37,464 nucleotides of DNA from a virus (lineage: Duplodnaviria; Caudoviricetes): the IMG/VR virus record IMGVR_UViG_3300025168_000240, positions 1 through 37,464 of that record. One strand, 5' to 3'. Under the pieces are notes generated by a model. The model did no database searches. It worked only from the letters and a program-made list of their open reading frames with translations, and was not told the origin of the DNA. Both the position numbers and the translations under genes were made by a program. Numbering within the stretch: position 1 is the stretch's first letter; the number at the start of each line of letters is the position of its first letter. This document shows positions 508-32,020 of this stretch, one piece after another.

Positions 508-831
508 TTACAGAGCTTTTAAATCTTTTTCCATTTCTTCCATGTCAGCTTGTTCAGCTTGCATTGCTACAATGTTAGCTTTCATGCGACTGATTTCACC
601 AGCAACTTGCTCTAAGCTATAAGATTGAACTGAATCATCCATTGCTTTACCAGTGCTTCCATCAAATTGCTTCTTAACTAGTTGCAGTTCATCACGAGAT
701 TGTTCTGCTTGTGCTTGTCTTACAACAACACCTTTGTCATCTTTTACTTCTTTTACTGCTTCAACTTCAACGACTTTAGTCTTTTTAACAGACCAGCTTT
801 TAGCAGACTTCATTGCTTTGTAGTTTTTCAT
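508..831 (-). CDS. hypothetical protein, C-terminal coiled coil (tail-fibre associated)
   Basis: 107-aa ORF coupled by TAATG to the tail fibre gene. Confidence 0.65.
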   Translation of the reverse strand: MKNYKAMKSAKSWSVKKTKVVEVEAVKEVKDDKGVVVRQAQAEQSRDELQLVKKQFDGSTGKAMDDSVQSYSLEQVAGEISRMKANIVAMQAEQADMEEMEKDLKAL

Positions 832-3800
832 TACTTTTTTTCCTTTAGTTTAGTTTCAAGTACATTTACTTTATTTGTTAATTCTTGTACAGCATTTACT
901 AATGCCCAAATCATTGGTTCTTGATTAGCCGATAACCACTCACCTTTATCGTCAACCATTTCGGGTATCACTTCTTGAGCTTCTTGAGCTATGATTCCTT
1001 GTCTTTCTTTTTCGGGATTGTAGCCATATGGATTGTCTTCTTTAAAATTATATGATACAATTCTTAGTTTATTAATTGCATCTAATCCAACATTCCAATC
1101 TTCAACATTTTCTTTTAATCTGCCGTCTGATGTCGTACTCCAAGATGAACCATTGTCACCCATATAAACATCGGTAATATTTGAACCACCAATTATTGCT
1201 TTATTGTCTCCAACGCCAGTTGCACCTCGACCAATAACAATTTGGTCTAATGCTCCTGAAGATGATGTATCAGCCCCTTTACCAATTAGGGTATTTCTTC
1301 TGCCGGATTCAAGAGTATTTCCAGACGAAAATCCGATAATTACGTTTCCATCGCCATCTGTTAAAGGCTTTCCAGCAAATTTTCCTAGAATGACGTTTTC
1401 ATAAGAACCATTAGCTTGAAGACCACTACCAACTCCTACAGCGACATTATCATATCCGACTGTTTCAGCATTTAAAGACTCAGCACCTACTGCCACATTC
1501 ATATTGCCAGCTGTAATACCGCCTAATGCAGATTTTCCAACTGCGGTGTTATTAGCACCAGTTCTGATTAATTTTAAAGTATCAAAACCAACAGCAGTAT
1601 TACCACTATTTGATTGTCCACTTACACCCATCATAGAACCACTACCAACAGCAGTATTATTACTTCCAGTTACGTTATAGTATCCAGCTTCCCAGCCTAA
1701 GTTGGTGTTGCTATCTCCCGTGCTTATTGAATACCCAGTTGATTTACCATATAAAGTATTCTTATCGCCACTAATCGCAATATTTGCTCCTGATGTATAT
1801 CCAAATATTGTATTTGATGCACCACTATCATTATTACTAAGACTAATGCGAGAGTTGTCATCGAGTAATAATCTTGTAGTTTGAGATGGTTGAAGTGCTA
1901 TGGCGTCAGCACTTTTTATATAAAAAGGATTGCTATCAGAATGAAATAATTCATTTCCATCAATTTGTAAATTATATGTTCCATCGTTAATATGTAGAAT
2001 TTTACTAGGATTGGTTGTTCCAATTCCAACCTTACCATTTGTAAATACAAAATCATAAGCATCACTCTCAAGTGTAAATTGCATATTGCCAGTACTATGA
2101 TTTTTCATCATAATACTATTACCAAAGTCACCTGCACCAGCAGAATTTCTTGATTGTATAAGTTTATTTGTTAATATTAGAAATTTTTCTGTAGTAAAAG
2201 TATTGCCAGTTGTGTGCAAGTTATAACTAGGCGAGGTTGTGCCAATGCCAACTCGATTGTTAGCACCACCAATAGACATAATAGCTGTGCCACCATAATT
2301 TTTAAAAGTATGAAAATGATTATTGTCACCAGTGTAATAACATGGTTGAGGGGCAAATTCTAAAAACTTTCTATCATATACTCTACCACTACCATCTTGA
2401 AATCCATATAAAGCTCCCGATAGCATCATATTCCCATGAACATCCAATGGATAACCAATATCTGTAGTTTTAATGCCAAGTCCAGTACTTGTAAGTGTCA
2501 TGCGATTAGTGTTGTCTTGATTCCACATAAACTTACCAGCATACGCAAGGTGAAAAAGCATATCGGTATTAGCAGAACCAGTTACTATATCGTTTGTAGT
2601 TCTTGGCATACCTACTGTACCTAGTAATGCTTGGTCTGTATCTCTAAATCTTATTTTACCACTTGTAGAACTAGTTTCTTCTAATGCTAATTCTCCAACA
2701 ATGTGAAGCTTTTCTGTGGGCGAGACTGTGCCGATACCAACATTGCCCCCACTATGAATCCTCATTCTTTCAGCACCAGCACCTTGCCTAAAAACAATCG
2801 GTGTATCAGATTGATTACTTATAATAAATGGTTTTTGACCATTACTATCATATCCAAAAAATGTATAATGATTACTATTTCCCGCATTGGTATTATGTCT
2901 TTCAGATACTATTCTTAATCTTGTATCTGTATCTGATATCTCAAGTGTATTGTTTGGCGAAGCTGTACCAATGCCGACTCTGCCATTAGCCAATATTGCC
3001 ATCTTCTCACTACCTTCGGTATGAAATTGGAACCCACCACCACCATCAGCATTGTAAAGGTCATATCTTAAAATACCAGCATCGCTGTCATCTTTATCAC
3101 CAAAATGTAAACCAGCATATCCAGTTGTTCCACCTATGAGCGTAGCATAGACCGCATCAGAAGCATTATAATTATTTTGAAATACTGCAACACTATTATT
3201 ATCGGTAGCTCCTAAAGCACCTTCGTTATCATCTCCAACAACATGAAACTTATTTAATGGCGAAGTTGTGCCGATGCCAATATTACCTCCAGTATCATTT
3301 ATGGTCATCGCAATTTGACCATCAGTTTTTAAATAAAATTTACCAGCGGTTTTAACATCTATATAGGGATACGAACTACCACTACCGGGATGAAATAAAA
3401 TATTATTAGTAGCATTAGCACTTATTCTACTAAGATACAAGTTTCCATCAACATGAAGTGGTTGAGTAGGCGAGGTTGTGCCTATACCAACTGACCCAGT
3501 AAATGCTGAAACTGGAGCAACACCATCTCCCTTTAAAACTAAAATATCGCTATAAGCACCACTACCACTACTAGTATTGAATGTTTTAAATGTGTGTTTA
3601 AGAAATACAGAATAAGTAAGAGTATTTTGTGTATTTCCATGAATAACATTTTTATTAAGGTCTGCCGTTTCTCCAAATTGAAACACATCATTTACAAAAG
3701 ACTTTCCACCAGCATCAAATCTAATTTTTTCTGCACCCGAACCATTAAATAATTCTAAAGCGACATTATCGCCACTATCAGTATCAATTCTAAAAGCAAC

Positions 3801-6752
3801 ATTACTACCATTATCTTGAACTCCTAAAATATAATCTTTATTTGTGCCAGTAGGTTGTTGAATAGTTAAGGAATAATCAGCGTTTGGCGAGGATGTACCG
3901 ATGCCGACATTTCCTGAGTTATTAATTATAACTCTTTGAGTTCCATCAGTAAAAAATTTATGAGCTTGTAATCCTGAAGTATTTCCGTACTCAAAAGTGT
4001 TATTTAAATTTCTTATAAAAGTTTTACTACCTAAAATAATAGATTGAGTAGTAGTGTTGAAAAAGAATTGACCAGTACCGCTACTATTCGCAATGTTTAC
4101 ATGACCATGAACATCTAATTTTTGACTTGGCGAGGTTGTACCTATGCCCAATTTTCCATTATTAGTAAAATAAATTAAAGAATTACTGCCATCAGGTCTC
4201 CAATCTAAAGTACCTTGAGGTGTAATTTTTAATCTTAAAGTTCCACCACTATTAATTAAAACACCATCTGAAGTATTAAATCTTATTTGTTCTGTACCAC
4301 TTGGGCCTCTTAGACCACGAGCATTATCTACTAATATATCACCCCCACTTACATGGAGCTTTTCTGTAGGCGAGGATGTGCCAATTCCAACTCGCTGACT
4401 ACTATCAATTCTAATTGCATCAGCAGAACCAGTTTGCATTTGTATATAACTTGACTGTCCTATTATTCTTGTACCGCCACTCCATACAAGATAATTATTA
4501 TCAGCTAATCTAAGATTTCCATTTACATGAAGCTTTGTGTTAGCATCTGGAGTTTCAGTTCCTATGCCTACATTAGAACCACCAAGACCAAATATTTGAT
4601 GTAAATCGGAAGTATTTTGACCGAGTATCATTTTACCATAAGTGATTGTAGAACCACCAAATGTTCTACCGACCAAATCTACATTATTACCATTGCTTTT
4701 CCAGACATGATTGGCATATCTAGGACTACCCCCTGAAAAAACTAACTCATCAATATCTACACCTTTTGCACGAAGACTTGCAGTCTGAGCAAGACCACCT
4801 GAAGTTACACCTACATTACCAATATTGATTTTACCATCACTACCAATTTCCATTGCTTCAGTATCAGTACCACCAGTTCTGTAATTAAATTTTACACCAC
4901 TAGTATTGTTGTCAGTATGCACATTTGTAATAGCATTATAAGTGGAACTACTCCCAATTGTGTTAAATCCAAAGTGACCACTAGTACCACTATAAATAGA
5001 AAAATTACTTAAATTAGAAGATAGTAGTTGTGATGAAGTGCTTGATTGATGTTTTATATATACTTCTCTGCCACCACTTGAAGCACTTTTAAAAGTTGTG
5101 CCATTTGCACTTCTAATATAATTGCTTAATCCACCAACTAAATTTAAATCTCCATAACCAGTTGCATAGATTTCAGCAGATGTTGTAGCAGTTAATTTTA
5201 ATTTGTTACTAGTAGCACTAGCATGTAATGGCAATAAAATATTACCAGCTACATGGAGCTTTTCTGTAGGCAAAGTTGTGCCTATGCCAATTTCTCCAGT
5301 ATTTTTAATGGTCATTCTATTATTACCACCCATCCTAAATTGCATAACTGCATTTTCATTAGCATAAGTGTTATTAAACCACATTTGAGTAGTACCTGAC
5401 TCACTATAACCAAATTCTGCTCTGTAAGAAACATGGTCATTAATAATTAAAGATGGTGTGCTAGTACTTGATAAACTATCTCCAACTGATAATAAAGCAT
5501 TAGGCGAGGTTGTGCCGATGCCGACATTTCCAGTAGTATTAGCTATAGATAATTTTGTAGAACCATCTGAACTGTCCATTATTCTAAATGTTGTATCAGT
5601 TGAACTGTACCCCAATCTTACACTAGCACTATTATTAGAATTATTTACTCCAATAACTCCACCTACAGAAACACTAGATAATCCATCTTGACCACCTACA
5701 AGTTTTGTATTTCCAGTATTTAAATTTGCTTGTAGTATTGTTTTATGTGTTGCAAAAGAACCATTTAATCCTTCAATCTTTATTTCGCCACCTTCAGAAC
5801 GAATCCTTGCATTCCCAACACCAGCAGATTCTCCACTATCTTGAAGAATAATTCCAGCATCTGTTCCATCTTTAATATGAAATTTAGCTAAGGGCGAGGT
5901 TGTGCCTATGCCTAAAGAAGAGCCTTTAAGCCTCATTTTTTCAGCATTATTTGTTTTAAAAATCACATCACCAGCAGAAGCTTCACTACTAGCATCACCA
6001 CCTGATACTTTTAAATCAGTTTGCCAAGCACCTTTAAGTTCTGTAACAGCAGTTATAGAATTTCCTAAGTAACCACTCATCGCACCATCGCCTTCTATTT
6101 GCCATTGCAATCCACTGCCATTATATATTCTAAGTAACTTATCGTTATTAGTAGTAGTGTTTTTATAGATTTCTAAACTAGCACTTGGCGTAATTGTGCC
6201 TATGCCAATTTTTCCGCCACCCTCAATAATCATTCTATTCGAACCACCAGCTGAAAATACAATGCCTCTGTCTCCTCCGACATCATTTGCTATTTTCATA
6301 AACAAATTTGTAGAACCAGCCGATGAAGTAAGGGTTGTAGTTGAAATTGAATGATTGTTTCCCGATAACTCTAATTTATCAGAAGTTCTAATTTTGCCTG
6401 AAACAAAAAGAGGTACATTGCTAATAGGTGATGCTCCAATTCCAACATTGCCGTTTCCGACTGTAAGAGTTCTACCATTATCAATGTCAAAATATATTTT
6501 TTGATTACTAGAATCAATAATCATTACAGTGTCACCGCTAGTGTCACCAATTTTTCTTGCAGAACTAGCACCTAAATTAATATTGCCACTAAAAGTAGCT
6601 TCACCACTTACAACTTGAAATGCACCACCAGCATCTGTTGCCCATTCTACACCAGTACCATTAGCCGAGACTTTAAGCACCTTCCCCGAACTTGGGGAAG
6701 ATGCTATTTTACTGGCTGACTGTAGCGTTTCCGCTAATTCACGCCACGCCAT
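831..6752 (-). CDS. long tail fibre with GNVGIGTTSP repeats and C-terminal peptidase S74 intramolecular chaperone
   Basis: About 15 G(N/K)(V/I)GIGTxxP repeats; Gly/Asn-rich NTAVG repeats; C-terminal SDGRLKENV...GIIAQEAQEVIPEMV plus coiled coil typical of S74 chaperones. Confidence 0.9.
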   Translation of the reverse strand: MAWRELAETLQSASKIASSPSSGKVLKVSANGTGVEWATDAGGAFQVVSGEATFSGNINLGASSARKIGDTSGDTVMIIDSSNQKIYFDIDNGRTLTVGNGNVGIGASPISNVPLFVSGKIRTSDKLELSGNNHSISTTTLTSSAGSTNLFMKIANDVGGDRGIVFSAGGSNRMIIEGGGKIGIGTITPSASLEIYKNTTTNNDKLLRIYNGSGLQWQIEGDGAMSGYLGNSITAVTELKGAWQTDLKVSGGDASSEASAGDVIFKTNNAEKMRLKGSSLGIGTTSPLAKFHIKDGTDAGIILQDSGESAGVGNARIRSEGGEIKIEGLNGSFATHKTILQANLNTGNTKLVGGQDGLSSVSVGGVIGVNNSNNSASVRLGYSSTDTTFRIMDSSDGSTKLSIANTTGNVGIGTTSPNALLSVGDSLSSTSTPSLIINDHVSYRAEFGYSESGTTQMWFNNTYANENAVMQFRMGGNNRMTIKNTGEIGIGTTLPTEKLHVAGNILLPLHASATSNKLKLTATTSAEIYATGYGDLNLVGGLSNYIRSANGTTFKSASSGGREVYIKHQSSTSSQLLSSNLSNFSIYSGTSGHFGFNTIGSSSTYNAITNVHTDNNTSGVKFNYRTGGTDTEAMEIGSDGKINIGNVGVTSGGLAQTASLRAKGVDIDELVFSGGSPRYANHVWKSNGNNVDLVGRTFGGSTITYGKMILGQNTSDLHQIFGLGGSNVGIGTETPDANTKLHVNGNLRLADNNYLVWSGGTRIIGQSSYIQMQTGSADAIRIDSSQRVGIGTSSPTEKLHVSGGDILVDNARGLRGPSGTEQIRFNTSDGVLINSGGTLRLKITPQGTLDWRPDGSNSLIYFTNNGKLGIGTTSPSQKLDVHGHVNIANSSGTGQFFFNTTTQSIILGSKTFIRNLNNTFEYGNTSGLQAHKFFTDGTQRVIINNSGNVGIGTSSPNADYSLTIQQPTGTNKDYILGVQDNGSNVAFRIDTDSGDNVALELFNGSGAEKIRFDAGGKSFVNDVFQFGETADLNKNVIHGNTQNTLTYSVFLKHTFKTFNTSSGSGAYSDILVLKGDGVAPVSAFTGSVGIGTTSPTQPLHVDGNLYLSRISANATNNILFHPGSGSSYPYIDVKTAGKFYLKTDGQIAMTINDTGGNIGIGTTSPLNKFHVVGDDNEGALGATDNNSVAVFQNNYNASDAVYATLIGGTTGYAGLHFGDKDDSDAGILRYDLYNADGGGGFQFHTEGSEKMAILANGRVGIGTASPNNTLEISDTDTRLRIVSERHNTNAGNSNHYTFFGYDSNGQKPFIISNQSDTPIVFRQGAGAERMRIHSGGNVGIGTVSPTEKLHIVGELALEETSSTSGKIRFRDTDQALLGTVGMPRTTNDIVTGSANTDMLFHLAYAGKFMWNQDNTNRMTLTSTGLGIKTTDIGYPLDVHGNMMLSGALYGFQDGSGRVYDRKFLEFAPQPCYYTGDNNHFHTFKNYGGTAIMSIGGANNRVGIGTTSPSYNLHTTGNTFTTEKFLILTNKLIQSRNSAGAGDFGNSIMMKNHSTGNMQFTLESDAYDFVFTNGKVGIGTTNPSKILHINDGTYNLQIDGNELFHSDSNPFYIKSADAIALQPSQTTRLLLDDNSRISLSNNDSGASNTIFGYTSGANIAISGDKNTLYGKSTGYSISTGDSNTNLGWEAGYYNVTGSNNTAVGSGSMMGVSGQSNSGNTAVGFDTLKLIRTGANNTAVGKSALGGITAGNMNVAVGAESLNAETVGYDNVAVGVGSGLQANGSYENVILGKFAGKPLTDGDGNVIIGFSSGNTLESGRRNTLIGKGADTSSSGALDQIVIGRGATGVGDNKAIIGGSNITDVYMGDNGSSWSTTSDGRLKENVEDWNVGLDAINKLRIVSYNFKEDNPYGYNPEKERQGIIAQEAQEVIPEMVDDKGEWLSANQEPMIWALVNAVQELTNKVNVLETKLKEKK
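2230..6206. repeat. 12 dispersed direct copies of a 20-bp motif, consensus GGCGAGGTTGTGCCNATGCC (+ strand)
   Basis: Copies start at 2230, 2719, 2956, 3259, 3469, 3886, 4129, 4369, 5269, 5503, 5893 and 6187; degenerate copies at 2008 and 4549. A 22-bp exact duplicate lies at 4350-4371 and 5250-5271. Confidence 0.85.
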
Positions 6753-7909: not shown

Positions 7910-10900
7910 TTATTGCTTTTTCGATGTTTTATTAATTCTGTTTTTTGAATTGTTTACTGTTTCGGTTGCTTCGTTTTGAGCTTTGATGAATGCCGCATTC
8001 CTTTTATCATAATCTTTTTTTGTTAGATTACCCTTTTGATAAAAATGATGTAGGTAAGCTTGATACTTAGTCCTTTCTTTACTACTATATAAGGTCATGC
8101 CCATATTTTTCTCATATTCAAATAAGATACGTTTTTCTGAGTCTTTTGCTGTCTTGCCATAGAATTGCCTAATGAATGGTGCTTTACTCATATCAGCATC
8201 TCCCATAACCAGGCCGCCAGCAGTATTTACTGTGCGAACAAGTGACTTGCCTAATCCGCCACCTAAATAATCAACAAAGAATTCAAGTGTTTCTGGACTC
8301 GTATCTCCAAGCCATCCTACTGGACCTCTAGCCCTTACAGCATTATTGATAGAACCATCGTTTTTATATGTCAAGCTACCGCCAGTCTTTAAAAAACTGT
8401 ATTGAGCTACATGTTTATATATATCTGGAGTCTTTCCCCAATATTTTTCAACTTCTGCTTTATTAGGGCCGTATGGGTTTTCTGGCTTATGGGGACCACC
8501 ATAAAAGTTTTGATTCATTCCCAATTGAACAAACGGTTCTAGAACAGTAGGTGCAATCATTTGCAGTGATGGACCTGAACCTAAGGGGTTATAAGATGCA
8601 TTTATAGCAGATAATAACCTTGCCATTTGCCTACCAGTATCTACTGGCTTACCTTTCATTTGCCCCCAGGCCATATCACCAGCTATATTGCCAGCGACTT
8701 TAAATACGTTGTAACCGTAAGGTAGCCTTATTTTAAAGTATTTATCTCCAGAGCCATATCTCATTATATAATAGTTATCTTTTTCATAATCACTAAGCTT
8801 TGCATATTCATCATCGTCTTCACTTGCCATATTATTTAAAAATGCCTCAGTAAAACCAAATGCCGCAAGACCAGTTACAAGCTTCCTAGCCTTTGATGAG
8901 TTTTTTAATACTCCAAGTATTCTAATACTTCCTTGCAATCCAGCATTAGAAAATAGATATGCAGAATTAAGTATGTTTCCTAATTGACCTTTACGATTAA
9001 AATTGATTGTAACATTCTTTGCTCCACTAGCCGCTTGCTCTTCACTGTAACCATTATCTAACATTGATTTAAATAATGTCAGTCTTACTGCTGATTCTGT
9101 CGCCTCATTTAAACTTTCCACAAAACCTAAAATAGATTTACCAGCAGACTTAACCCCAATGCCTTTTTCTTCTACTCTTGACAAGTCAGCTTCTAAAGTA
9201 CTTAATTTGTCTTCTATAGATTCATAATCGAAAAAACCAGTCTTACCACCAGCTTTCCTCATTCTTTCGTATAATTGAGCCCATTCAGAATCTATATCCT
9301 CATTTTGAACAACATTATAAACAGCTTTCCAGGCTTTACCCAAATTCTTGGGAGATAACGATTGCATTAAAACATCGTTACCTTGTTCAGAACTAATATT
9401 TACTCCAGCAGTTTGGATATCACGAACAAAATTTGTTACGATAAATTCAGGATTGGCTATTGTATTAATATAACGTAAATAATTATTAATTTTATTTAGC
9501 ATTGGAATAGCTTTTGTTGAACCGATATCTTTCATTGCTCTAGCAATCTGCTGACCACTAGCCCCTTTAAAAATAATCTGTTTTACTTTTCCATCTACTT
9601 TTACATGGATTACGTCATCTGGATTAACGGCAACACCTTCAGAATTTTTAATTGAAGAAAGTGGTATCATGTGGTCTATTTCACCCTGGTCATCATAAAC
9701 TGGCTTATGCTTTACTCCAATAACTTCATAAGATTCACTTGGGTAAGACTCGACCAAACTTAAAAGTCTTTTATTAACCAGGTTCTTTTCAGAGCGAACT
9801 ACAGAACTGTGATACTGCTCTAATGAACTAATTAAAATATTTTCAACTTCCCTTTCACTACCATAAGACCTCTGAAACTCTTTTCCTTTTACATCAAAAG
9901 TAGAAGTCCTTCTTTTAGACTCTTCAATAATAGCTTCTTTATTATCCTCGACTCTAAATAATGGGACATAATTTTTATAGGTATTTTTTAAGGTGTCATA
10001 TGTCTCCTGGTCAATTAATCCAGCCTCTAATCTCCTATCCAGAGAAGCATCAATAACCTTAGTTTTAAACTCTTTTGAAAAAGTTCTTATTTTTTTAAGG
10101 CCATACTTTTTATTTAATTTTCTTTTGGTGTCCTTAGCTTGCTGGTTTGTCATACCACTACCACCATCTTGCATGTCTTCCCTTTTACTCGCAACATAAT
10201 TATTACGTTCCTGGGCATGTAAGGCGTGAAGGTATAAATTAAAATCTTCTGAAGAGATTCCTGAATTGACAAGCCTAGACATAAAACTATCAGGATTCTT
10301 ACTGTCAATCATCTCTTTGTTAAAATCCCGTATAATTTCTGGGACCTTACCAATAAATAATTCAGTAGCTAAGTTAACATTTTGATGGTCTCTTATTCTT
10401 CTGTCGCCTAAAAATTTAGACTGAATATCACCTTGCCAGGATACTACTGGATGTAGTTTGTCGAATATTAAGGTTTGAATATAATCAGATAATGTTCTAT
10501 CTGATATTTCGAGGGTTTTATCTACTTGCTCAGCCGCTCGTACCTCTGCGGCAAAGTCTGGGTCAGGTACTAACTGTCTAGTTTTTCGCTGTTGTTCGGA
10601 GTTTCGTTTGAGGGTTGACTCAAGTCTTCTTTCGATTTTTGGCCCATAATGATTGTCGAGCCTTTCGAGTAGAACGGATTGGTGGGTTTTAAGAATGGAA
10701 TCTCTATACCGTTTACCGTTATTGTCTCTTGTCCAGTTATTTTTTGTGTTTTCATATTTTGTCCCAGCTGGTCTCAAAGTTAATTCTAATCCTAATTCGG
10801 TCCTAATTCTTTCTAAAGCTTTTTCTACATTATCTTTATGATTAGATGCAAAATCTTTTTTTTCTGTAAAAGTACCAACAAATAATGATGGTTTATTATT

Positions 10901-13900
10901 TACTAATTCCGTTACAGCTCCAGGAGTAAAGTTACTATCGGTCTCTTCTCTTAATATATTATATACTGCTTTTTGCATTTCAGGTTTAGATAATTCATCA
11001 TGACTATATATCATGCCTAATCCACTTTGATTTGGACTTCTACTTAATAATCCGATTTCATCTTGTTGAAATAATAAACCAATCGAATTCATTAAAGCTT
11101 TAATCGCTTGACTACTACCTCTAACATTTACTGTAGCGTTCGCATTAGCATCATCACCCCAAAATCCTAAACCTTTACTTGATATAGAGTTCACTTTTAA
11201 ACCTAGCTCTTTTGCTAATTCAGGAACTATATCTCGTACTATTTTATCAGTTACAGCTATTTGTTTCTTTAAAGGTAACTTGGAAAATGCTGGTCCATAT
11301 TTTTGTGCAAATGGAGTATTAGCACCAAAAGCTAATTCAAATGCTATTGTTGGTTTCTGTAGACTAATTGCATCTGGTATAGATTGCCCATCTGAAGATT
11401 CAGACATTCTAGCAATTGCAGTCCAACCAATAGCCTGGACCTGGTGAGGTTTAAGATTACCGCCCATATACCCCATTTCATTTAATTGGTCTGTAAGCTC
11501 ATTCATATATTGAACTGCGTATTCATATTGAGTGTCACTAGGTGATGAACCTCTAGAGTCATACCGTAATCTTTTTACTTGTTCTGGGTCTTTTGCTAAT
11601 CGCATTAAAATGTTTCTAATAGCACCATCTATAAAGCCAGCATCTCTAAAAGTGTGTCTATCTATTGCAACAGCTTTTAAACCTCTTGGGTCGTCTTGCA
11701 TAATAGTTCTAGTATCTTTACCTAAAGCTGAATCAAGAAAATCAAATAATTTTGCACCAGCACCCGTTTTTGCTCTAACACCAGCTAAAGTAGCTTTAAT
11801 GTTTCTTGCCACCATTCCAGTGCCAGGTGATTTAAATGAAGCTAATTCGGCACGCAATTGTTCAGCACCTAAAAAGGTGTTTGATAATGCTTGCTGTGGG
11901 CTTGCTTGGACATTTCCCAGTAACCAAGCTACCATATAATTAACAGCCTCTTCTTCACCAAATTCATCAACAAATGCTGGGTATGCATCTTCATACCAAT
12001 TCATGGATGTTTTTATTTCATCTTCATCTAAAACACTTTCAACTTGTTTAATCCAGTCTTCAGGTGTTTTATCTCTTCCTAGAATCATCACCCCACCGTT
12101 TTTCAACTCAATCTCTACTCTATTATTATTTTGTCTTCCAATTGTTGGGTCTTTTTTTCTCCTATCGACAGTTAATCTTAATCTGTCTTTTTTATCCTTA
12201 CTGCTCATTACATCAGGATATAACCCAACTGCTTTTTCAATTACAGCTGGTTCTAGTTGGTAGGATATATTTGAATCTGATTCATCAAAAGTTCCCTGGT
12301 TAAATGTTGATTTTATTTGGCCATTATTAAATACAGCCATAGTTGCAAATTTTATATCTTGTGCGGCTTGTATCCTTTTTTGAATTTCTACGTCAGTAAG
12401 AGGATTATCCTCTTGCATTATTTCTTGCATAATTGCATTTAAGCTAACATCTTTATTTCCATGACTTTCTACACCAGCCACACCGTCATAACCAGCTTTT
12501 TGAATTTCTTTTTGAACCCCTGAGTCATTTAAGTATTCCCAAAGAGATGGAGACTCAACCGCTGATGGGGGATTGTTTTCTATAAAATCAGTCAATCCCT
12601 TAATTTCTACTCCAGTTAATTCTATAAACTCGTCTATAGAAACCATATCATTTAAATCTTTAGTTAATATCAGTGGGTTTTCAACTTTTAAATAAACTGG
12701 ATAAACTTGTTCAGCACCACTATAATCCGCATTTTGTAAGCCTCTAACTCTTTGCTCAGCGTAAACATTTGCAATTTCAGGGTCATCACCAAACCAACTA
12801 ATACCATCTTCATCTGTTGCAAATTTGTTAAAACTATAAGGGGAACCATGATACATAGTAACTGGGACCCCATCGTTTTGGACCACTGAATTGCCAAACC
12901 ATTTTTTAAATGCTGGTGTTTCTATGTTTTCACCTGGGACCATTTGTTTGGTTTTCTTTTGCAGTTTTGATTTAGTTGTTGGCCTAGCTGGTGGTGGTCT
13001 TTGATTGGCTGGCTGGCTTTCTGTTTGACTTGCAATTTCTGCATCAACACCTTTCCTAAATTTCCTATTTGCAATTGTTTTAGATTTGCCACCTTTCAAC
13101 ATGTCAAAAATCTTAGAACCATCGCTCATATCACCCATTTTATCGGTAAATTCCTTCGCAAGACCCTCTGGGATGTATGTTACACCCTCAAAATCTTTCG
13201 ATAGCCCTTTAAAGCCCCCTATGCTGTATACAATCACATCAGAAAATAATTCGATGTCACCTTCCACTGAGTCGGTAAAACGAAGATTTAAGCCCATTTC
13301 TAAAGCTTTTTTTCGAACAGCATCAGTCCAATTTTTGATTTTTAAAACTAAGGCTTGGTCTTCGGCATTTTTGCTGGCTTGGAGTCGTTTAAGTCTTGCT
13401 TCAACGGTTTCTTCGAGAAGTGTGCTTCTATCCGCTGAGCTATTGATGGTAATATTGCCTTTATCATCGTTCTCTCCCTTAACCTTGCCTCCGTAGATTT
13501 TTTGTCCATTTTCATCCTCTCTTATTACTGGAAATTGATTAAGGTCAACATCGTATGAAGTGTTTGTCATCTCTTCTTCTGTGAATTCTTGCGACCCGTC
13601 ATCTTCCTTGTTATATGCTATATTAAAATCATTGGCTTCATCATCATTGATTTGCTTTGCTTGCGTTTCAACTGTGATTGCTTCTTCTGGTGATACCTGA
13701 TTAGGTAATTCCATTTCTTTGCTAGTGTCTACAAGACCACCAACAATTTGATTAATTTTTGATGTTCCAGAATTAACTACCGCTTTTCCACCATACATTG
13801 GTAATAATCCAGCCGCTGTCTGCTTAGCAGTTTCAATAGCTTCTTCCCAAATGCTTTTTGCCTCTCTTAGTTCAACCCCTTCTAAAAGAGCCCCTAATTC

Positions 13901-14893
13901 AGTAGTTACAACTTCTACAGCAAGCTGTAATTCTTCCTCGGCTATATTTTTCGCCCAATCTTTACCATACCTATCAGAAGCATTTTTAATAAATTTAATT
14001 ACACCATTTGTAATAGCTTTATTTGCTTCCTTTTGCACGCCATCTGGAATAAGTCTTGCAATTTGCATTTGCTCTATTGCGGCATAAAGTCCCCCACCTA
14101 ATGACGATAACATAATAGCTGTGTTGTCATCAACACCTCTATCTATCATATTTCGTAACATCATTCCAGAACCTTGCTGTTGCCAAAATATAGTAGAGCC
14201 TATTGCCATACCAGTTCCAGCACCTAAAGGCACTGTTACAAATTCTTCTGGCACTGCCGCTAATGGCGGAGAACTTCCCACTATTGCCGCACCAGCCATA
14301 CCAGCAGTAGCGTAAGGAATACCAGCTTTAAGACCCTCTGCCATTGTACCAGCTAATCCACCCGTAGCATTAAAAATATATTCTGCCCAATTCTCTGCTT
14401 CTATTGGGTCTCGCTCTACCATCTCTTCGTATTCATTAATTAGTTCTTGGACTTCTGACAATGGTAATGAACCAGGTTGGTTTGTAAAAGAGAGGTAGTA
14501 CATTTGGTCAAGCTTACTACTAGTAGCTGTCCTTCTAAATTGTTCAGCCGCTTTGCGACCTAATGACCTTTTTCGATTCTTTAATAAAGGTTTAGATTTT
14601 GGTTTACTATCTTCTTCTAAACTAGGTCCAGCTTCAGGTGTAAAAGATTTATCTTGTTCAGCTGTTTCAAGCTCCATTGCCTTAAAAATTCTGGCATTGT
14701 TAAAACCTTTTTTGCGTAAACCAGCAATAGTACTTAGCTGTTTTGGTAATCCAAATTGGTCTTCTGGTTCAATAAATACTTCTGGGTCTTCTTCAGCACC
14801 AAGAATATTATCAACAAGGGAACCTTGAGATTCAGCACTCTTTATTGAGTCTTGTTTAAAATACTCTCTTGCTAACTCACGCCAATCAGACAT
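7910..14893 (-). CDS. large polyvalent/ejection protein (ART-PolyVal-like domain, central HhH-glycosylase-like domain, C-terminal LPD38-like domain)
   Basis: FKKWFGNS...MYHGS...WFGDDPEIANVYA...VYPVYLKVENP (ART-like); WYE...AIDRH...QVQAIGW; INFNRKG...LFSNAGLQG...KIRLPYGY (LPD38-like). Position matches podovirus internal-virion genes. Confidence 0.75.
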   Translation of the reverse strand: MSDWRELAREYFKQDSIKSAESQGSLVDNILGAEEDPEVFIEPEDQFGLPKQLSTIAGLRKKGFNNARIFKAMELETAEQDKSFTPEAGPSLEEDSKPKSKPLLKNRKRSLGRKAAEQFRRTATSSKLDQMYYLSFTNQPGSLPLSEVQELINEYEEMVERDPIEAENWAEYIFNATGGLAGTMAEGLKAGIPYATAGMAGAAIVGSSPPLAAVPEEFVTVPLGAGTGMAIGSTIFWQQQGSGMMLRNMIDRGVDDNTAIMLSSLGGGLYAAIEQMQIARLIPDGVQKEANKAITNGVIKFIKNASDRYGKDWAKNIAEEELQLAVEVVTTELGALLEGVELREAKSIWEEAIETAKQTAAGLLPMYGGKAVVNSGTSKINQIVGGLVDTSKEMELPNQVSPEEAITVETQAKQINDDEANDFNIAYNKEDDGSQEFTEEEMTNTSYDVDLNQFPVIREDENGQKIYGGKVKGENDDKGNITINSSADRSTLLEETVEARLKRLQASKNAEDQALVLKIKNWTDAVRKKALEMGLNLRFTDSVEGDIELFSDVIVYSIGGFKGLSKDFEGVTYIPEGLAKEFTDKMGDMSDGSKIFDMLKGGKSKTIANRKFRKGVDAEIASQTESQPANQRPPPARPTTKSKLQKKTKQMVPGENIETPAFKKWFGNSVVQNDGVPVTMYHGSPYSFNKFATDEDGISWFGDDPEIANVYAEQRVRGLQNADYSGAEQVYPVYLKVENPLILTKDLNDMVSIDEFIELTGVEIKGLTDFIENNPPSAVESPSLWEYLNDSGVQKEIQKAGYDGVAGVESHGNKDVSLNAIMQEIMQEDNPLTDVEIQKRIQAAQDIKFATMAVFNNGQIKSTFNQGTFDESDSNISYQLEPAVIEKAVGLYPDVMSSKDKKDRLRLTVDRRKKDPTIGRQNNNRVEIELKNGGVMILGRDKTPEDWIKQVESVLDEDEIKTSMNWYEDAYPAFVDEFGEEEAVNYMVAWLLGNVQASPQQALSNTFLGAEQLRAELASFKSPGTGMVARNIKATLAGVRAKTGAGAKLFDFLDSALGKDTRTIMQDDPRGLKAVAIDRHTFRDAGFIDGAIRNILMRLAKDPEQVKRLRYDSRGSSPSDTQYEYAVQYMNELTDQLNEMGYMGGNLKPHQVQAIGWTAIARMSESSDGQSIPDAISLQKPTIAFELAFGANTPFAQKYGPAFSKLPLKKQIAVTDKIVRDIVPELAKELGLKVNSISSKGLGFWGDDANANATVNVRGSSQAIKALMNSIGLLFQQDEIGLLSRSPNQSGLGMIYSHDELSKPEMQKAVYNILREETDSNFTPGAVTELVNNKPSLFVGTFTEKKDFASNHKDNVEKALERIRTELGLELTLRPAGTKYENTKNNWTRDNNGKRYRDSILKTHQSVLLERLDNHYGPKIERRLESTLKRNSEQQRKTRQLVPDPDFAAEVRAAEQVDKTLEISDRTLSDYIQTLIFDKLHPVVSWQGDIQSKFLGDRRIRDHQNVNLATELFIGKVPEIIRDFNKEMIDSKNPDSFMSRLVNSGISSEDFNLYLHALHAQERNNYVASKREDMQDGGSGMTNQQAKDTKRKLNKKYGLKKIRTFSKEFKTKVIDASLDRRLEAGLIDQETYDTLKNTYKNYVPLFRVEDNKEAIIEESKRRTSTFDVKGKEFQRSYGSEREVENILISSLEQYHSSVVRSEKNLVNKRLLSLVESYPSESYEVIGVKHKPVYDDQGEIDHMIPLSSIKNSEGVAVNPDDVIHVKVDGKVKQIIFKGASGQQIARAMKDIGSTKAIPMLNKINNYLRYINTIANPEFIVTNFVRDIQTAGVNISSEQGNDVLMQSLSPKNLGKAWKAVYNVVQNEDIDSEWAQLYERMRKAGGKTGFFDYESIEDKLSTLEADLSRVEEKGIGVKSAGKSILGFVESLNEATESAVRLTLFKSMLDNGYSEEQAASGAKNVTINFNRKGQLGNILNSAYLFSNAGLQGSIRILGVLKNSSKARKLVTGLAAFGFTEAFLNNMASEDDDEYAKLSDYEKDNYYIMRYGSGDKYFKIRLPYGYNVFKVAGNIAGDMAWGQMKGKPVDTGRQMARLLSAINASYNPLGSGPSLQMIAPTVLEPFVQLGMNQNFYGGPHKPENPYGPNKAEVEKYWGKTPDIYKHVAQYSFLKTGGSLTYKNDGSINNAVRARGPVGWLGDTSPETLEFFVDYLGGGLGKSLVRTVNTAGGLVMGDADMSKAPFIRQFYGKTAKDSEKRILFEYEKNMGMTLYSSKERTKYQAYLHHFYQKGNLTKKDYDKRNAAFIKAQNEATETVNNSKNRINKTSKKQ

Positions 14894-27870: not shown

Positions 27871-27961
27871 ACTTACCTGATTTAAACCTGTAAAATTCAC
27901 TGATTATATATATATGTGTAGTACTATCCTACCTTACAATAATATTATTTTATAAAACTAC

Positions 27962-27991
27962 TTGACACATATAAGTGCTACACTGTAACAT
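27962..27991 (+). promoter_or_regulatory. sigma70-type promoter of the rightward cassette
   Basis: TTGACA (27962-27967), 18-bp spacer, TAACAT (27986-27991). Confidence 0.55.
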
Positions 27992-28023
27992 AGGGCTCAA
28001 TCAAATAACAAAGGACAGTAAAC

Positions 28024-28437
28024 ATGAAAGAACAAATATATAAATCAACTGATTATGAACTTAAACTAATTGCTGGGAGTAGTAGCGAGAGAGAAGGGGT
28101 TTACCCACTGACTCCTGATGAAGTTAGACAGTATATAGAATCCTGGGCCTTTATTAACACTGATTATGGCCGCAGTGATTTAGGGATTGAGTATTATGTT
28201 GACATCAGGATTGATGGAGAGTGGAGTAAGAGTGATGCCAAGAGAAGAAACGGTATTGAAATTTGTGAATGGGATAAAACTGAGCAATATGTTAAGCTAA
28301 AGAAAAAAAACTTCAGTGTCTGGTGTAAGCCTCAAAATGGGTGGACTGAAAATAAGAAATATGCCAGGCATAATCTAAGACCAGTCGATGGTGTTACTAG
28401 CTGGGGGACTTCCTACATAACAATCACAAAAAAATAA
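28024..28437 (+). CDS. hypothetical protein (accessory cassette gene 1)
   Basis: 137 aa, AAGGACAG RBS at 28011. Confidence 0.75.
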   Translation: MKEQIYKSTDYELKLIAGSSSEREGVYPLTPDEVRQYIESWAFINTDYGRSDLGIEYYVDIRIDGEWSKSDAKRRNGIEICEWDKTEQYVKLKKKNFSVWCKPQNGWTENKKYARHNLRPVDGVTSWGTSYITITKK

Positions 28438-28497
28438 CCATACTGATGATGGCCAGGGTAGTTCCCTGGCCGAAACCGTAAAGGTCTATGGAAACTA
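28438..28497 (+). ncRNA. type I hammerhead ribozyme 1 (cleavage predicted after C28486)
   Basis: CCATA-CTGATGA-T-GGCCAGGG/TAGTT/CCCTGGCC-GAA-ACC/GTAAA/GGT-C-TATGG; loop II TAGTT pairs with 3' AACTA. Confidence 0.93.
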
Positions 28498-28523
28498 AAA
28501 CAAATCAAATAAAGGACAGTAAC

Positions 28524-29114
28524 ATGAAATTAAAAAAAGATACATTCACATTATTACAGCTTAAAAAAACTGCGAAAAGCATCAGCACTGAAAGTGGTTG
28601 GGCTTTACCAGGTGATAAGTGGGAAGTTGTACTCACCAGTAAATTATGGGACAGTATTTACCATGAAAAAGCACAGAGACAGCACGGTCTTGGTTTTCAT
28701 GAAGGTAACCCAGTTGATAGAGATGATTTAAAAATAATTAAAACTCTGGATATACCTGAATCTATTGAATATCAAGTGGCGAGATTCAATGAGGATATCG
28801 AAGCTGGTAATGCTCGTTTTTCACCAGTATACCATACCAACAATCTAGGTCCAGATTGGAATACTACTATCGTGGTAGGCGGCAAACCTTACCAAGTAGA
28901 AACGATAGCTGAGCGTGATAGACTTGAGGATGATAGGTCTCATTTTGTTATTGGTATAAATGGAATACATTACATTTATCCAGTTGTGGGTAATGCTGGT
29001 GCATTTAATGAGGATGGCTATGTTACTAGATATGCTCGTGAAGCACTAGCTAGAATGGAGATTAGGAAGGCTTATAAGCTAGTTGGTAAGTCTGCCGCTG
29101 GATTGGGAAAATAA
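28524..29114 (+). CDS. hypothetical protein (accessory cassette gene 2)
   Basis: AAGGACAG RBS at 28512 supports ATG 28524; an in-frame ATG at 28488 lies inside the ribozyme. Confidence 0.75.
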   Translation: MKLKKDTFTLLQLKKTAKSISTESGWALPGDKWEVVLTSKLWDSIYHEKAQRQHGLGFHEGNPVDRDDLKIIKTLDIPESIEYQVARFNEDIEAGNARFSPVYHTNNLGPDWNTTIVVGGKPYQVETIAERDRLEDDRSHFVIGINGIHYIYPVVGNAGAFNEDGYVTRYAREALARMEIRKAYKLVGKSAAGLGK

Positions 29115-29173
29115 CCATACTGATGATGGCCTGGGTGATTCCCAGGCCGAAACCCCAGGGTCTATGGAAATCA
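29115..29173 (+). ncRNA. type I hammerhead ribozyme 2 (cleavage predicted after C29162)
   Basis: CCATA-CTGATGA-T-GGCCTGGG/TGATT/CCCAGGCC-GAA-ACC/CCAG/GGT-C-TATGG; loop II TGATT pairs with 3' AATCA. Confidence 0.93.
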
Positions 29174-29199
29174 TAACTAAAACAAAAAAGGACAGCAAC

Positions 29200-29751
29200 A
29201 TGATATTATTAAATCACAATCAAATCTGGATGACATTATTAACAAATATTTTTTGTCAGAACATTGGCAAAAATGTTAATCCATGGCTTAAGGAAAACTG
29301 GAAACAAAAGAAAGATAATACGCTTAGACAGCATCAGCTTACTCAGTTAGAAAAAAGAATCTCGGACTCACTTGAAGCCACTTGCCAGGACTTAAAAAAT
29401 ATAGATGAGTTTGGTTATGGTGGGTATGACTTTCGTTTCACCAACTGGAACAGTTACAGCGTTTGCCTAGTGTTGGAAGTTCTTTACTACAAATGGCCTA
29501 AGAAGGTTGATAGAACTGTATCTACCAAGAAAGCGATATTAAGGTTAGGACCTGACTGGGATTACAGTAATCAGGAGAAATTAGATACATGCTACCCTAC
29601 TCATGAACATCCCTATGAAACTGTTATAAAAGGCATAGAAGAACAGATTGAGATTGATGAACAGATTAAGAAACTAAGAACAAAAAAAGCAGACCTACTA
29701 CGTTCAATTGGACATAGTTATTTTGAGGATTTAGATTACAAGGTCCATTAA
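29200..29751 (+). CDS. hypothetical protein (accessory cassette gene 3)
   Basis: AAGGACAG RBS at 29188 supports ATG 29200. Confidence 0.75.
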   Translation: MILLNHNQIWMTLLTNIFCQNIGKNVNPWLKENWKQKKDNTLRQHQLTQLEKRISDSLEATCQDLKNIDEFGYGGYDFRFTNWNSYSVCLVLEVLYYKWPKKVDRTVSTKKAILRLGPDWDYSNQEKLDTCYPTHEHPYETVIKGIEEQIEIDEQIKKLRTKKADLLRSIGHSYFEDLDYKVH

Positions 29752-29755
29752 AATA

Positions 29756-29816
29756 TCCATACTGATGATGGCCCAGGTGGTTCCTGGGCCGAAACACTAA
29801 GTGTCTATGGAAACTA
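29756..29816 (+). ncRNA. type I hammerhead ribozyme 3 (cleavage predicted after C29805)
   Basis: TCCATA-CTGATGA-T-GGCCCAGG/TGGTT/CCTGGGCC-GAA-ACAC/TAA/GTGT-C-TATGGA; loop II TGGTT pairs with 3' AACTA (one G-U). Confidence 0.93.
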
Positions 29817-29842
29817 AAAATTCAAGAAAAGGAAGAATCATC

Positions 29843-30142
29843 ATGAAAGAAACAGATAGTTTGTTTTTATTACATGTAATTAACAAAAATAATGAAGGAC
29901 AAGTTGTAGGTGTATTTAATGATTTAAAGATAGCAAGAAAAGTTGCAGAGTCTTTTTTAGATGTCCCAGTAAAGTCATTATCAAAGATTAAAAAAGATAT
30001 TGATAATGGAGTTGTTGTCGACTTGCATACAACTAGAGGTGTGAGGGGATGCTTAGCTTGGAAACATAGAAGAGTATGGATTGAATTTGTAAAAGTAAAT
30101 GAAGCAATAGAATTAGGCCGCTATTTTTTAGGTGACAATTAA
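29843..30142 (+). CDS. hypothetical protein (accessory cassette gene 4)
   Basis: AAGGAAG RBS supports ATG 29843; VVGVFNDLKIA motif common in small phage proteins. Confidence 0.7.
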   Translation: MKETDSLFLLHVINKNNEGQVVGVFNDLKIARKVAESFLDVPVKSLSKIKKDIDNGVVVDLHTTRGVRGCLAWKHRRVWIEFVKVNEAIELGRYFLGDN

Positions 30143-30169
30143 TTAATAAAATAAAAAAAGGACAGCAAA

Positions 30170-30613
30170 ATGAGTAAATATAGAAAAGTTATTAACCTCC
30201 TTCAAGACCCACTTAATGAACGCATTCCCTACGATTTGACTATTACGGGAATCAATTACAGTGATATACCTGAGGCTTATAGGAAGGGTCGATATGGCAT
30301 AGATTGCCAAATTGATAATATTCCAGGTTGTTACACTGAAGATGGTGAGAAATGGTACAGTGTGCATGACAGCAGAAAAAATATCATCGTAGCAATCATA
30401 GTTAAAATAGATTACTCCAGTAAGGTAACTCCTCGGTATGAACCTTATATCGTTTTCACTCCGATATGCCGACCATGTGCAACTCTCAAAGATGAACTAG
30501 AGGTCGTCTGTTATACCAAATGGAATTGTTATAGACCAATCTATGCAAATTCACCAAAGACTCTCCAGGAATGCATTGATAAAGTAACGAACATAAATGG
30601 AGAATACTTGTAA
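30170..30613 (+). CDS. hypothetical protein (accessory cassette gene 5)
   Basis: 147 aa, AAGGACAG RBS at 30158; TAATG-coupled to the recombinase. Confidence 0.7.
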   Translation: MSKYRKVINLLQDPLNERIPYDLTITGINYSDIPEAYRKGRYGIDCQIDNIPGCYTEDGEKWYSVHDSRKNIIVAIIVKIDYSSKVTPRYEPYIVFTPICRPCATLKDELEVVCYTKWNCYRPIYANSPKTLQECIDKVTNINGEYL

Positions 30614-31749
30614 TGAAGAAGATAAACCTACCAAACCTTCAAAATAAGGTCCGTAAAGGCTACATAGCCTATTATTACAGATTTGTTCTTGAAGGTAGTG
30701 AGAAATTTATCGCATTAGGTGATTCAAAAAGTAATACGGTCACCCAGGTTAAACTGCGATATGTTCAAGCTCAAAACAAGGCTTTTAATCTTAAGCATGG
30801 TTTAGAACCAGTGGTATTAGATGCTCCTAGTGATGAACAGCAACCTATCTTACTGGCTGATGTGTTTGACCCCTGGGTCGCTCATGAAAAGAATCGCTCC
30901 AGGACTTGGATGAGAGATATCTATAATCTTAAGCATTTTATCGCTTTTTTTGGTAAAGAATCAGACTGGGTCAATAACAGAGTATCAAAAGATTGTAAAA
31001 TTGATTTAGCCGCATTGACATCATCAGATATTAATGATTTCTATGGCCATCAATATGTGCAAGGTTACAAGACTGAAACAGTTGCTAAACGTCATAATTA
31101 TCTTAATCCATTGTACACATGGTTAACAGATGAAAAGATTCTTAAGGATAATTATTACGCCAGGAAAGGCAAACTTAAAAAGCCAGGTGAAGATAAAACC
31201 CCTTACCAGGTATTGACCAGGGACCAAGCTGAGCTTATTGTAGATAATGCACCAAATGATTACACTAGAATACTTTGGACCATTATGCTTGATACAGCTT
31301 TGTCACCAGTTGATGCAAGAAATCTAAACGAGAAAAAGCATCACATAAATGGTATTGGTGACAATGGCGAAGTCATACCTTGCATTGTAACATCAAGACA
31401 AAAGACTGGTAAGTATAGTGCAATCTCAATCAGTGATAGGATTAGTAGCTTAGGAAGCCTTCTTTGGGACCTAGGTGGCTCTAAGTCTGACCAGGACAAG
31501 GCTAATACTAAGTTTGCAAAAGTCTGCAAAATTGTAGGTATAAAGCAAAATAAAGGTGAGAAGCTAAGCCAGTATTCATTCAGGCATTCATTAGCTACGC
31601 ATCTTATTTCTAATGGTCACTCATTAGATTCAGTGCAAAGACAGCTAGGTCACACACTTGGCAGTAAAGTAACTCAAACTTACATAGCAAATCAAATTGC
31701 TAGCGAAGTATCAAAAACAAAAACAACCCTAAATGAAAGGACAGCATAG
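30613..31749 (+). CDS. int: tyrosine recombinase/integrase
   Basis: Arm-binding-like N-terminus (YYYRF...FIALG), SAM-like middle, DTALSPVD, RQKTG, YSFRHS, LGH, TQTY. Confidence 0.88.
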   Translation: MKKINLPNLQNKVRKGYIAYYYRFVLEGSEKFIALGDSKSNTVTQVKLRYVQAQNKAFNLKHGLEPVVLDAPSDEQQPILLADVFDPWVAHEKNRSRTWMRDIYNLKHFIAFFGKESDWVNNRVSKDCKIDLAALTSSDINDFYGHQYVQGYKTETVAKRHNYLNPLYTWLTDEKILKDNYYARKGKLKKPGEDKTPYQVLTRDQAELIVDNAPNDYTRILWTIMLDTALSPVDARNLNEKKHHINGIGDNGEVIPCIVTSRQKTGKYSAISISDRISSLGSLLWDLGGSKSDQDKANTKFAKVCKIVGIKQNKGEKLSQYSFRHSLATHLISNGHSLDSVQRQLGHTLGSKVTQTYIANQIASEVSKTKTTLNERTA

Positions 31750-31990: not shown

Positions 31991-32020
31991 AAAAAAAGGC
32001 CCTAGCAATAGGGCTTTTTT
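31991..32020. terminator. bidirectional intrinsic terminator
   Basis: A7-GGCCCTA-GCAA-TAGGGC-T6. Confidence 0.85.

Follow-up and report, generated by a model that had tools for sequence, protein, structure and literature searches.

In the 37,464-nucleotide (nt) sequence IMGVR_UViG_3300025168_000240 of a virus of the Caudoviricetes (Duplodnaviria), which we analysed over its whole length and refer to as the window, three paralogous hammerhead ribozymes stand in tandem in a plus-strand operon, each of them directly ahead of the leader of a gene. The reading that we consider probable, though far from assured, is that these ribozymes, through their predicted cleavage, would split the message of the operon and so yield mRNAs of one gene each, read from ordinary Shine–Dalgarno (SD)-led starts, and that the U-AUG exposed at each new 5' end would draw enough ribosomes for the ribozyme clade of the window to keep it in frame with the downstream gene and free of stop codons. 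Judged by sequence and pairing, the elements are type I hammerheads with a pseudoknot, and both the ribozymes and their layout are already known in kind; cutting the message into single-gene RNAs, as proposed earlier, is most likely their job. The comparisons below partly support the proposal that this clade tends to preserve the frame of the stem I AUG and to keep stops out of it.

Hammerhead anatomy and the three leaders

The ribozymes and the leaders that their cleavage would release are listed here, with cut sites predicted from the hammerhead consensus.

28438..28497, plus strand: type I hammerhead copy 1, from sequence and pair counts; predicted cut after 28486
28438-28442/28487-28491: copy 1, stem I
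28443-28449: copy 1, core, followed by an extra U
28451-28458/28464-28471: copy 1, stem II
28472-28475: copy 1, GAAA, followed by a short stem III and the GUC triplet at 28484-28486
28459-28463 with 28493-28497: copy 1, pseudoknot of the loop with the bases after stem I
29115..29173, plus strand: type I hammerhead copy 2; GUC 29160-29162, predicted cut after 29162
29136-29140 with 29169-29173: copy 2, loop pseudoknot, two compensatory changes relative to copy 1
29757..29816, plus strand: type I hammerhead copy 3; GUC 29803-29805, predicted cut after 29805
29778-29782 with 29812-29816: copy 3, loop pseudoknot, one G-U pair
28487..28523, plus strand: leader 1, 37 nt; stem I AUG 28488-28490, AAGGA SD 28512-28516, gene ATG 28524
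29163..29199, plus strand: leader 2, 37 nt; stem I AUG 29164-29166, AAGGA 29188-29192, gene ATG 29200
29806..29842, plus strand: leader 3, 37 nt; stem I AUG 29807-29809, AAGGA 29829-29833, gene ATG 29843

All three copies carry the core CUGAUGA, the GAAA segment and the GUC triplet of a type I hammerhead core, with an extra U preceding stem II. Stem I (5-6 base pairs (bp), CCAUA/UAUGG) is open, and stems II (8 bp) and III (2-3 bp beyond the core A-U) are closed by loops; the five loop II bases pair with a five-base segment 3' of stem I, forming a pseudoknot between loop II and the 3' tail, in keeping with membership of the type I class. In an alignment of 14 copies, from which the tested structure was itself derived, 98.9% of the cells are paired and 9 of the 21 pairs show compensatory changes, which occur in all three stems (2/5 pairs in stem I) and in the pseudoknot (3/5 pairs), and none of 500 shuffles matched the pairing and covariation of this alignment. 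A loop/tail pairing score of at least 4 is reached by 44 of 71 distinct ribozymes, versus 19.7 (maximum 30) with permuted partners. An Rfam scan of the window returned no family at gathering level; the closest model, RF03152, gave 20 bits (E 3.7) with copy 3 only, below the gathering score of 56.3 bits that membership of that family would require. Pairing covaries in the stems and in the pseudoknot, and the paired strands include the AUG with the bases after it: the first 11 nt of the leader (UAUGG and the next six bases) belong to stem I and to the pseudoknot, the latter having been missed in the earlier, sequence-only reading of this DNA.

That reading had described three leaders of 37 nt starting with U-AUG, and so they are: each follows a GUC triplet and ends right before the ATG of a gene. 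The AUG at position +2 is also, as it had noted, in frame and stop-free in all three, giving extensions of 12 amino acids (aa), METKTNQIKDSN, MEIITKTKKDSN and METKNSRKGRII, for leaders 1, 2 and 3, respectively. The leaders derive from a single module as paralogous copies, with repeats of families D1 and D2 and ungapped identities of 28/37, 20/37 and 22/37, so that their equal length and frame represent one inherited fact and not three independent draws, and equal length brings equal frame automatically; the series 37/37/37 consists of three copies of the module's 37-nt form. The extensions share an M-E-T/I start because these codons are fixed by the RNA pairing strands, and a conserved 12-aa peptide was rejected, since the only recurring codons are those on the paired strands and the extensions vary between 9 and 12 aa.

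No SD precedes the stem I AUG in the three window copies, where SD energies are −1.5, −2.0 and −1.5 kcal/mol before this codon versus −5.3 to −5.6 kcal/mol at the gene starts; some relatives have SD-like purines in stem III. The median SD energy is −2.0 kcal/mol before the stem I AUG and −5.4 kcal/mol before the gene start. Being at +2 of the predicted cleavage product, the AUG lies within 3 nt of the 5' end, as expected of a near-leaderless start. In folds computed without the pseudoknot, the probability that it is unpaired rises on cutting from 0.15 to 0.70, from 0.11 to 0.21 and from 0.68 to 0.81 in the three copies, and the predicted accessibility of the gene's own binding site passes from 0.67 to 0.72, from 0.81 to 0.78 and from 0.51 to 0.72.

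Two further ideas were rejected. A read-through connection to the frame of the upstream gene does not fit the stop-to-start gaps, which at 86, 85 and 91 nt differ in frame (83-87 nt in relatives), nor does a rolling-circle reading of the released pieces fit their lengths, as neither 676 nor 643 nt between cuts is a multiple of 3.

Variants of the element were seen as well. Several clade hammerheads have the core CCGAUGA or CCGACGA, with the second U replaced by C (L170, which stands before an integrase, L012, L174, L176 and L303; loci are given by L numbers), and their stems and pseudoknot are otherwise intact. The same extra U is found before a GGCC stem II in type II hammerheads (L001, L003, L005, L008, L009, L013-L015 and L021-L024), several of which stand in tandem between phage genes.

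Leader length and reading frame among relatives

Among the short leaders of the clade, 22 are distinct, and they measure 28 (one), 29 (one), 31 (two), 34 (eight), 36 (two), 37 (seven, three of them those of the window) and 38 nt (one), 37 nt being found in 4/19 of those from outside the window. Five clade loci have leaders of 123-132 nt, and in AUG-less relatives, 46 of which have an assigned start, the leader ranges from 20 to 57 nt. The proposal that every cleavage leaves exactly 37 nt is therefore not sustained in homologues, an exact 37 nt was rejected as a constant, and the module lacks the constant post-cleavage leader of a fixed-length insulator. In these counts, the gene starts of L067 and L074 were assigned as TTG, no start was assignable in 12/28 rows with other UAUG ribozymes and in 1/47 AUG-less rows, loci that duplicate the window count as one, and L240 was dropped as a false match inside a gene; L030, L150, L151, L153, L154, L201 and L262 were excluded from the counts of stops and long leaders as chance or unrelated matches.

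Spacing thus varies among homologues, whereas the frame is kept above expectation, in this clade only. Clade leaders are in frame and stop-free in 18/22 cases (15/19 without the window), compared with a length of 3n+1 in 19/46 AUG-less relatives. Within the clade, the binding-site anchor moves by single bases and the total stays at 34 or 37 nt, and the classes of insertions and deletions (indels) are in frame in 7/9 cases (permutation p 0.024; 5/7 for non-window classes, p 0.045). Gains and losses of stops on a minimum spanning tree number 0/9/9 in the AUG frame and the two others, and without the window, under four settings, 0-2 stop events fall in the AUG frame versus 14-19 in the others (p 0.003-0.013). 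Of the stops lying between −27 and −10 of the gene start, 2/24 are in the gene's frame in the 22 ribozyme-led leaders, as compared with 19/39 in 24 leaders that share this binding module but lack a ribozyme (Fisher p 0.0009); the latter control contains the upstream genes' own stop codons.

The leaders of 123-132 nt (L012/L248 in G004, L223, L232, L238 and L180/L286), among them a 132-nt ribozyme leader before the G004 homologue of the window gene at 29200, keep the AUG frame open for 41-45 codons, ending 2 nt before the next gene, overlapping it, shortly inside it or fused to it. Four distinct long leaders, from three lineages, hold 0 early stops in this frame versus 3-8 in each other frame. 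They also bear two GTTA-N6-TAAC-like palindromes about 22 nt apart and a hairpin, and their 3' segment is complementary to the first post-cut bases, so that it would compete with stem I and the pseudoknot. No Rfam family matches the long leader, and a motif scan returned just the five known contigs and five unrelated matches; we regard it as a candidate switch or new structured RNA. Its open reading frame (ORF) was rejected as a conserved protein, the RNA fold explaining its conservation equally well.

Several results weigh against selection on the AUG frame, in addition to the upstream stops in the ribozyme-free control. Both the stop-event test and the limits of the clade were settled once the data had been seen, and module recombination breaks the assumption of the spanning tree. 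A threshold of at least 70% in frame among new members, set in advance, failed, with 2/4 distinct new leaders of the same clade. In the sister clade, 8/13 new leaders have a length of 3n+1 and only 5/13 are stop-free, and orthologous genes differ in frame; other short UAUGG leaders show no signal (7/20 in frame and stop-free, stop events 4/2/7). Frame-keeping indel edges without the window are 8/14 (p 0.058), and early stops in short leaders, when counted by distinct position, are 2/3/4 across the frames, which means that much of the raw stop count reflects shared ancestry. The frame is broken in 4/22 clade leaders, and ribozymes without the AUG are present in the same integrase operons (L173, L178). 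As for the long leaders, their ORF has no homologue among proteins of 22-72 residues, that of L180 is shifted by one base relative to the others, and the leader can fold back onto the stem I AUG (z −0.6 to −2.8, 4/25 pairs compensatory).

In other lineages, the AUG of stem I opens whole genes. Two hammerhead copies with the same stem I occur in a Nitrosopumilus genome (L150/L156; cut before position 1505, minus strand), and there the stem I AUG directly opens a gene for a 234-aa protein with a nuclease domain. In the marine-type viral contigs L061, L063 and L032 it opens ORFs of 76, 77 and 49 aa, respectively; those of L061 and L063 are 34% identical and homologous from residue 2 of L063, and this AUG is probably their real start. 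L150/L156 and L061/L063 show that the layout can serve as a start in other lineages, though they are different elements.

Probable message cutting and the possible role of the stem I AUG

The ribozymes begin where the preceding gene ends, the upstream stop lying 0-5 nt before stem I in 26/26 cases, and the module of ribozyme plus leader stands before many unrelated genes in relatives, swapping between them. In the mechanism that we favour, transcription from the promoter candidate at 27962 followed by self-cleavage would yield single-gene RNAs of 676 and 643 nt that begin with a 5'-OH and an A-rich leader free of structure and bear the G-C-rich stem II hairpin at the 3' end. Most protein would initiate at the SD-led AUG, and the U-AUG would, after the cut, act as a near-leaderless start at a low level, as the frame and stop statistics suggest. 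Out-of-frame or early-stop versions would be mildly selected against, their ribosomes crossing the binding site unproductively, and the 9-12 extra residues would have no function of their own. Low-level use with selection against harmful frames only would leave a bias with exceptions and a non-conserved peptide, and since each gene has its own SD-led binding site, which changes little in predicted accessibility, cleavage is unlikely to gate the main start.

Hammerhead cleavage leaves a 5'-OH (PMC6765202), and as RNase E and RNase J favour 5'-monophosphate ends (PMC3997798), such an end is plausibly stabilising. A hammerhead-made mRNA with a 2-nt leader yielded protein in Escherichia coli under T7 expression (PMC5101355), and E. 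coli mRNAs with an SD-led start are also translated from NAUG at their 5' ends (PMC4965119). Against use of the exposed AUG, leaderless translation has been reported to depend on a 5' phosphate (PMC4611024; PMC11698992). Neither kinase nor RNA ligase families were matched among the window proteins scanned. In the titles and abstract openings of the open-access literature, no stem I start codon with a clade-wide frame bias was found, and the function of phage hammerheads is still open (PMC6765202).

A bolder version, which we hold to be possible but doubtful, has stem I carry a working start codon: cleavage would turn a buried AUG into a 5'-OH near-leaderless start that feeds the next gene in frame or coupled, raising or timing its expression, and that is kept by frame selection and not for its peptide, competing in long-leader relatives with the helix that reburies the AUG. 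An unmasked start of this kind had been one of the two proposals of the sequence-only reading. It agrees with the kept frame and avoided stops in the clade and with an AUG that lacks its own SD in the window, and is set back by the four broken frames, by the lack of bias in other clades and by the failed out-of-sample test. The failed test also favours the contrary view that the ribozymes cut mRNA as we propose but the AUG is never used, being merely a helix strand, with a frame bias that descends from two module lengths (34 and 37 nt) spread by recombination. Many relatives indeed lack the codon (UGGG in 25/71 and UAGG in 5/71 versus UAUG in 29/71, in searches biased towards AUG), including those within the integrase operons, orthologous genes differ in frame (37 versus 38 nt, L067 versus L074), and the 5'-OH end would disfavour leaderless starts (PMC4611024; PMC11698992). 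We nevertheless think an unused AUG rather unlikely; against it stand a binding-site anchor that shifts with the total fixed at 34 or 37 nt, which amounts to compensating indels, stop events that avoid the AUG frame, and the 41-45 open codons of the long leaders in three lineages.

Stronger control by cleavage, gating translation or selecting a longer isoform whose 12 extra residues matter, could draw on the common frame of the three window copies, on an AUG predicted, in folds lacking the pseudoknot, to be more open once cut and on the whole genes opened in L150/L156 and L061/L063. We find it improbable: the extensions share nothing beyond the paired strands and precede unrelated genes in the same form, the families of the genes at 28024 and 29843 occur both with and without a ribozyme, and the predicted accessibility of the gene's own binding site is barely altered by cleavage. 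Isoform choice by cleavage, as raised in the sequence-only reading, is accordingly unlikely, each gene having its SD-led start. Its other proposal, an insulator, holds at best loosely: ribozyme, A-rich leader and binding site do form a portable module, but one of no standard length. Selection for an exact 37-nt 5' untranslated region (UTR) is a very remote prospect, even if 37 nt, besides the window's 37/37/37, recurs with shifting internal spacing in 7/22 clade leaders; 34 nt is as common (8/22), 28, 29, 31, 36 and 38 nt occur too, and the 20-57 nt of the family and the 123-132 nt of five loci have already largely refuted it. We also give very little weight to repeats that persist mainly as recombination handles for cassette exchange, or to release or circularise unit-length RNAs, with incidental effects on translation. 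Crossovers do fall within the module, and the released pieces of 676 and 643 nt would carry ligatable ends; but compensatory pairing and the pseudoknot show that the RNA fold is under selection, repeats of the binding site that lack a ribozyme could be used for recombination as well, the window proteins scanned matched no RNA ligase family, and in the available part of Perreault et al. the tests described gave neither ligated nor circular products (PMC3088659). Message cutting with low-level use of the exposed AUG remains the reading that we prefer.

Phage context and known systems

The window derives from a temperate tailed phage, with terminase, portal, major head protein and tyrosine integrase detected by PHROG and Pfam scans, and the public runs with pieces of the ribozyme region are labelled mostly marine or seawater, matching pieces being confirmed in two sets of four runs. 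The operon comprises seven genes, with a promoter candidate (27962) ahead of them and a terminator (31993) behind; the features around the ribozymes are as follows (genes are named below by their first position).

27962..27991, plus strand: sigma-70-like promoter candidate, 10/12 matches
28024..28437, plus strand: first gene of the operon, 137 aa, no family; ribozyme-free upstream here, stop abutting stem I of copy 1
28524..29114, plus strand: cassette gene behind ribozyme 1, 196 aa, no PHROG or Pfam match; stop abutting copy 2
29200..29751, plus strand: cassette gene behind ribozyme 2, 183 aa, no PHROG or Pfam match
29843..30142, plus strand: cassette gene behind ribozyme 3, 99 aa; homologues start six residues later, at the in-frame TTG 29861
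30170..30613, plus strand: ribozyme-free cassette gene, 147 aa, with a ribosome-binding module of the same type
30613..31749, plus strand: tyrosine integrase (phrog_1, E 4.7e-30; PF00589)
31993..32020, plus strand: terminator-like hairpin closing the operon, matching on both strands

Neither PHROG nor Pfam gave a significant match to the genes adjoining the ribozymes. Promoter-like sites are not enriched in the window (19 versus 15.9 in shuffles). An imperfect palindrome at 27976-27990 overlaps the promoter candidate, similar ones lie upstream of the first cassette gene of relatives, and this one is a possible repressor operator. A single contig from an RNA library spans 28649-28841, inside gene 28524, and includes no ribozyme. 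A GTDB scan gave eight loci, none belonging to the ribozyme clade of the window, and the phage collection gave nothing but a chance 34-nt DNA match and terminases at no more than 37% identity. Elsewhere in the window, 831-6752 encodes a tail-fibre-like protein of 1973 aa with a Peptidase_S74 chaperone domain at its C-terminus, and 7910-14893 a polyvalent protein of 2327 aa with ART-PolyVal and LPD38 domains, which is probably injected along with the phage DNA.

The region 27900-30613, between a small-terminase-like gene and the integrase, is a hypervariable cassette array, as are the corresponding regions of L159-L166 and L170-L180, and its crossover points are the ribozyme and binding-site repeats. 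Public contigs show ribozyme 2 of the window fused with the gene 28024 leader, a different gene in place of the one that separates ribozymes 2 and 3, and ribozyme 3 joined straight to the integrase. Gene 29843 contains, at 29843-29863, a relic of the binding site of its homologues as well as the in-frame TTG 29861, which suggests that a new leader recombined in frame onto an older one.

If ribosomes do start in nature at the 5'-OH U-AUG made by these ribozymes, self-cleavage would be tied directly to translation initiation, as a natural ribozyme-made route of leaderless initiation in bacteria and, in nature, an exception to the 5' phosphate rule for leaderless starts in bacteria. Should ribosomes not use the AUG, the window would hold an ordinary, well-preserved case of tandem phage hammerheads. 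In either case, the clade offers ready controls, with in-frame, out-of-frame, AUG-less and long-leader versions of the module before homologous genes.

Synthetic ribozyme insulators such as RiboJ use cleavage to strip the upstream context and leave a defined 5' UTR; RiboJ is engineered and of fixed sequence, whereas the leader of the natural module varies over 28-38 nt and beyond. RAGATH-1 (RF03152) resembles the window copies in its type I topology, a 5-bp stem I and the UA before the core, and differs in a very short stem II region, where stem II of the window copies has 8 bp and a loop that takes part in the pseudoknot. The closest parallel in arrangement is found in the prophage tandem hammerheads of Perreault et al. 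2011 (PMC3088659), in which cleavage was shown for three tandem sets: there, too, single genes of variable kind lie between hammerheads, several of which occur close to an integrase, a pseudoknot fixes stems I and II (in about 40% of the representatives, of all three types), and processing into single-gene mRNAs was proposed. The tandem sets tested come from other bacteria, no stem I AUG or link to a reading frame is described in the available part of that paper, and the window copies differ from them in that an extra U precedes stem II and stem III has 2-3 pairs only. HHphage of the haloviruses HF1 and HF2 (PMC3088659) likewise comes from phages and lies a short distance ahead of a start codon, a 5' end having been mapped near its cut; it belongs to an archaeal host, has a core variant and lies 13 nt before the start, and the same portion of text describes no second in-frame AUG. 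As to the exposed codon itself, the 5'-terminal upstream AUGs of Beck et al. 2016 (PMC4965119) also lie no more than 3 nt from the 5' end of SD-led mRNAs, and in E. coli they bind ribosomes and can affect the downstream gene. Their 5' ends are promoter-listed transcript starts, and in the tabulated cases available the AUGs open short separate or overlapping upstream ORFs, whereas here self-cleavage would create the end, a 5'-OH, and the AUG frame runs on into that of the gene.

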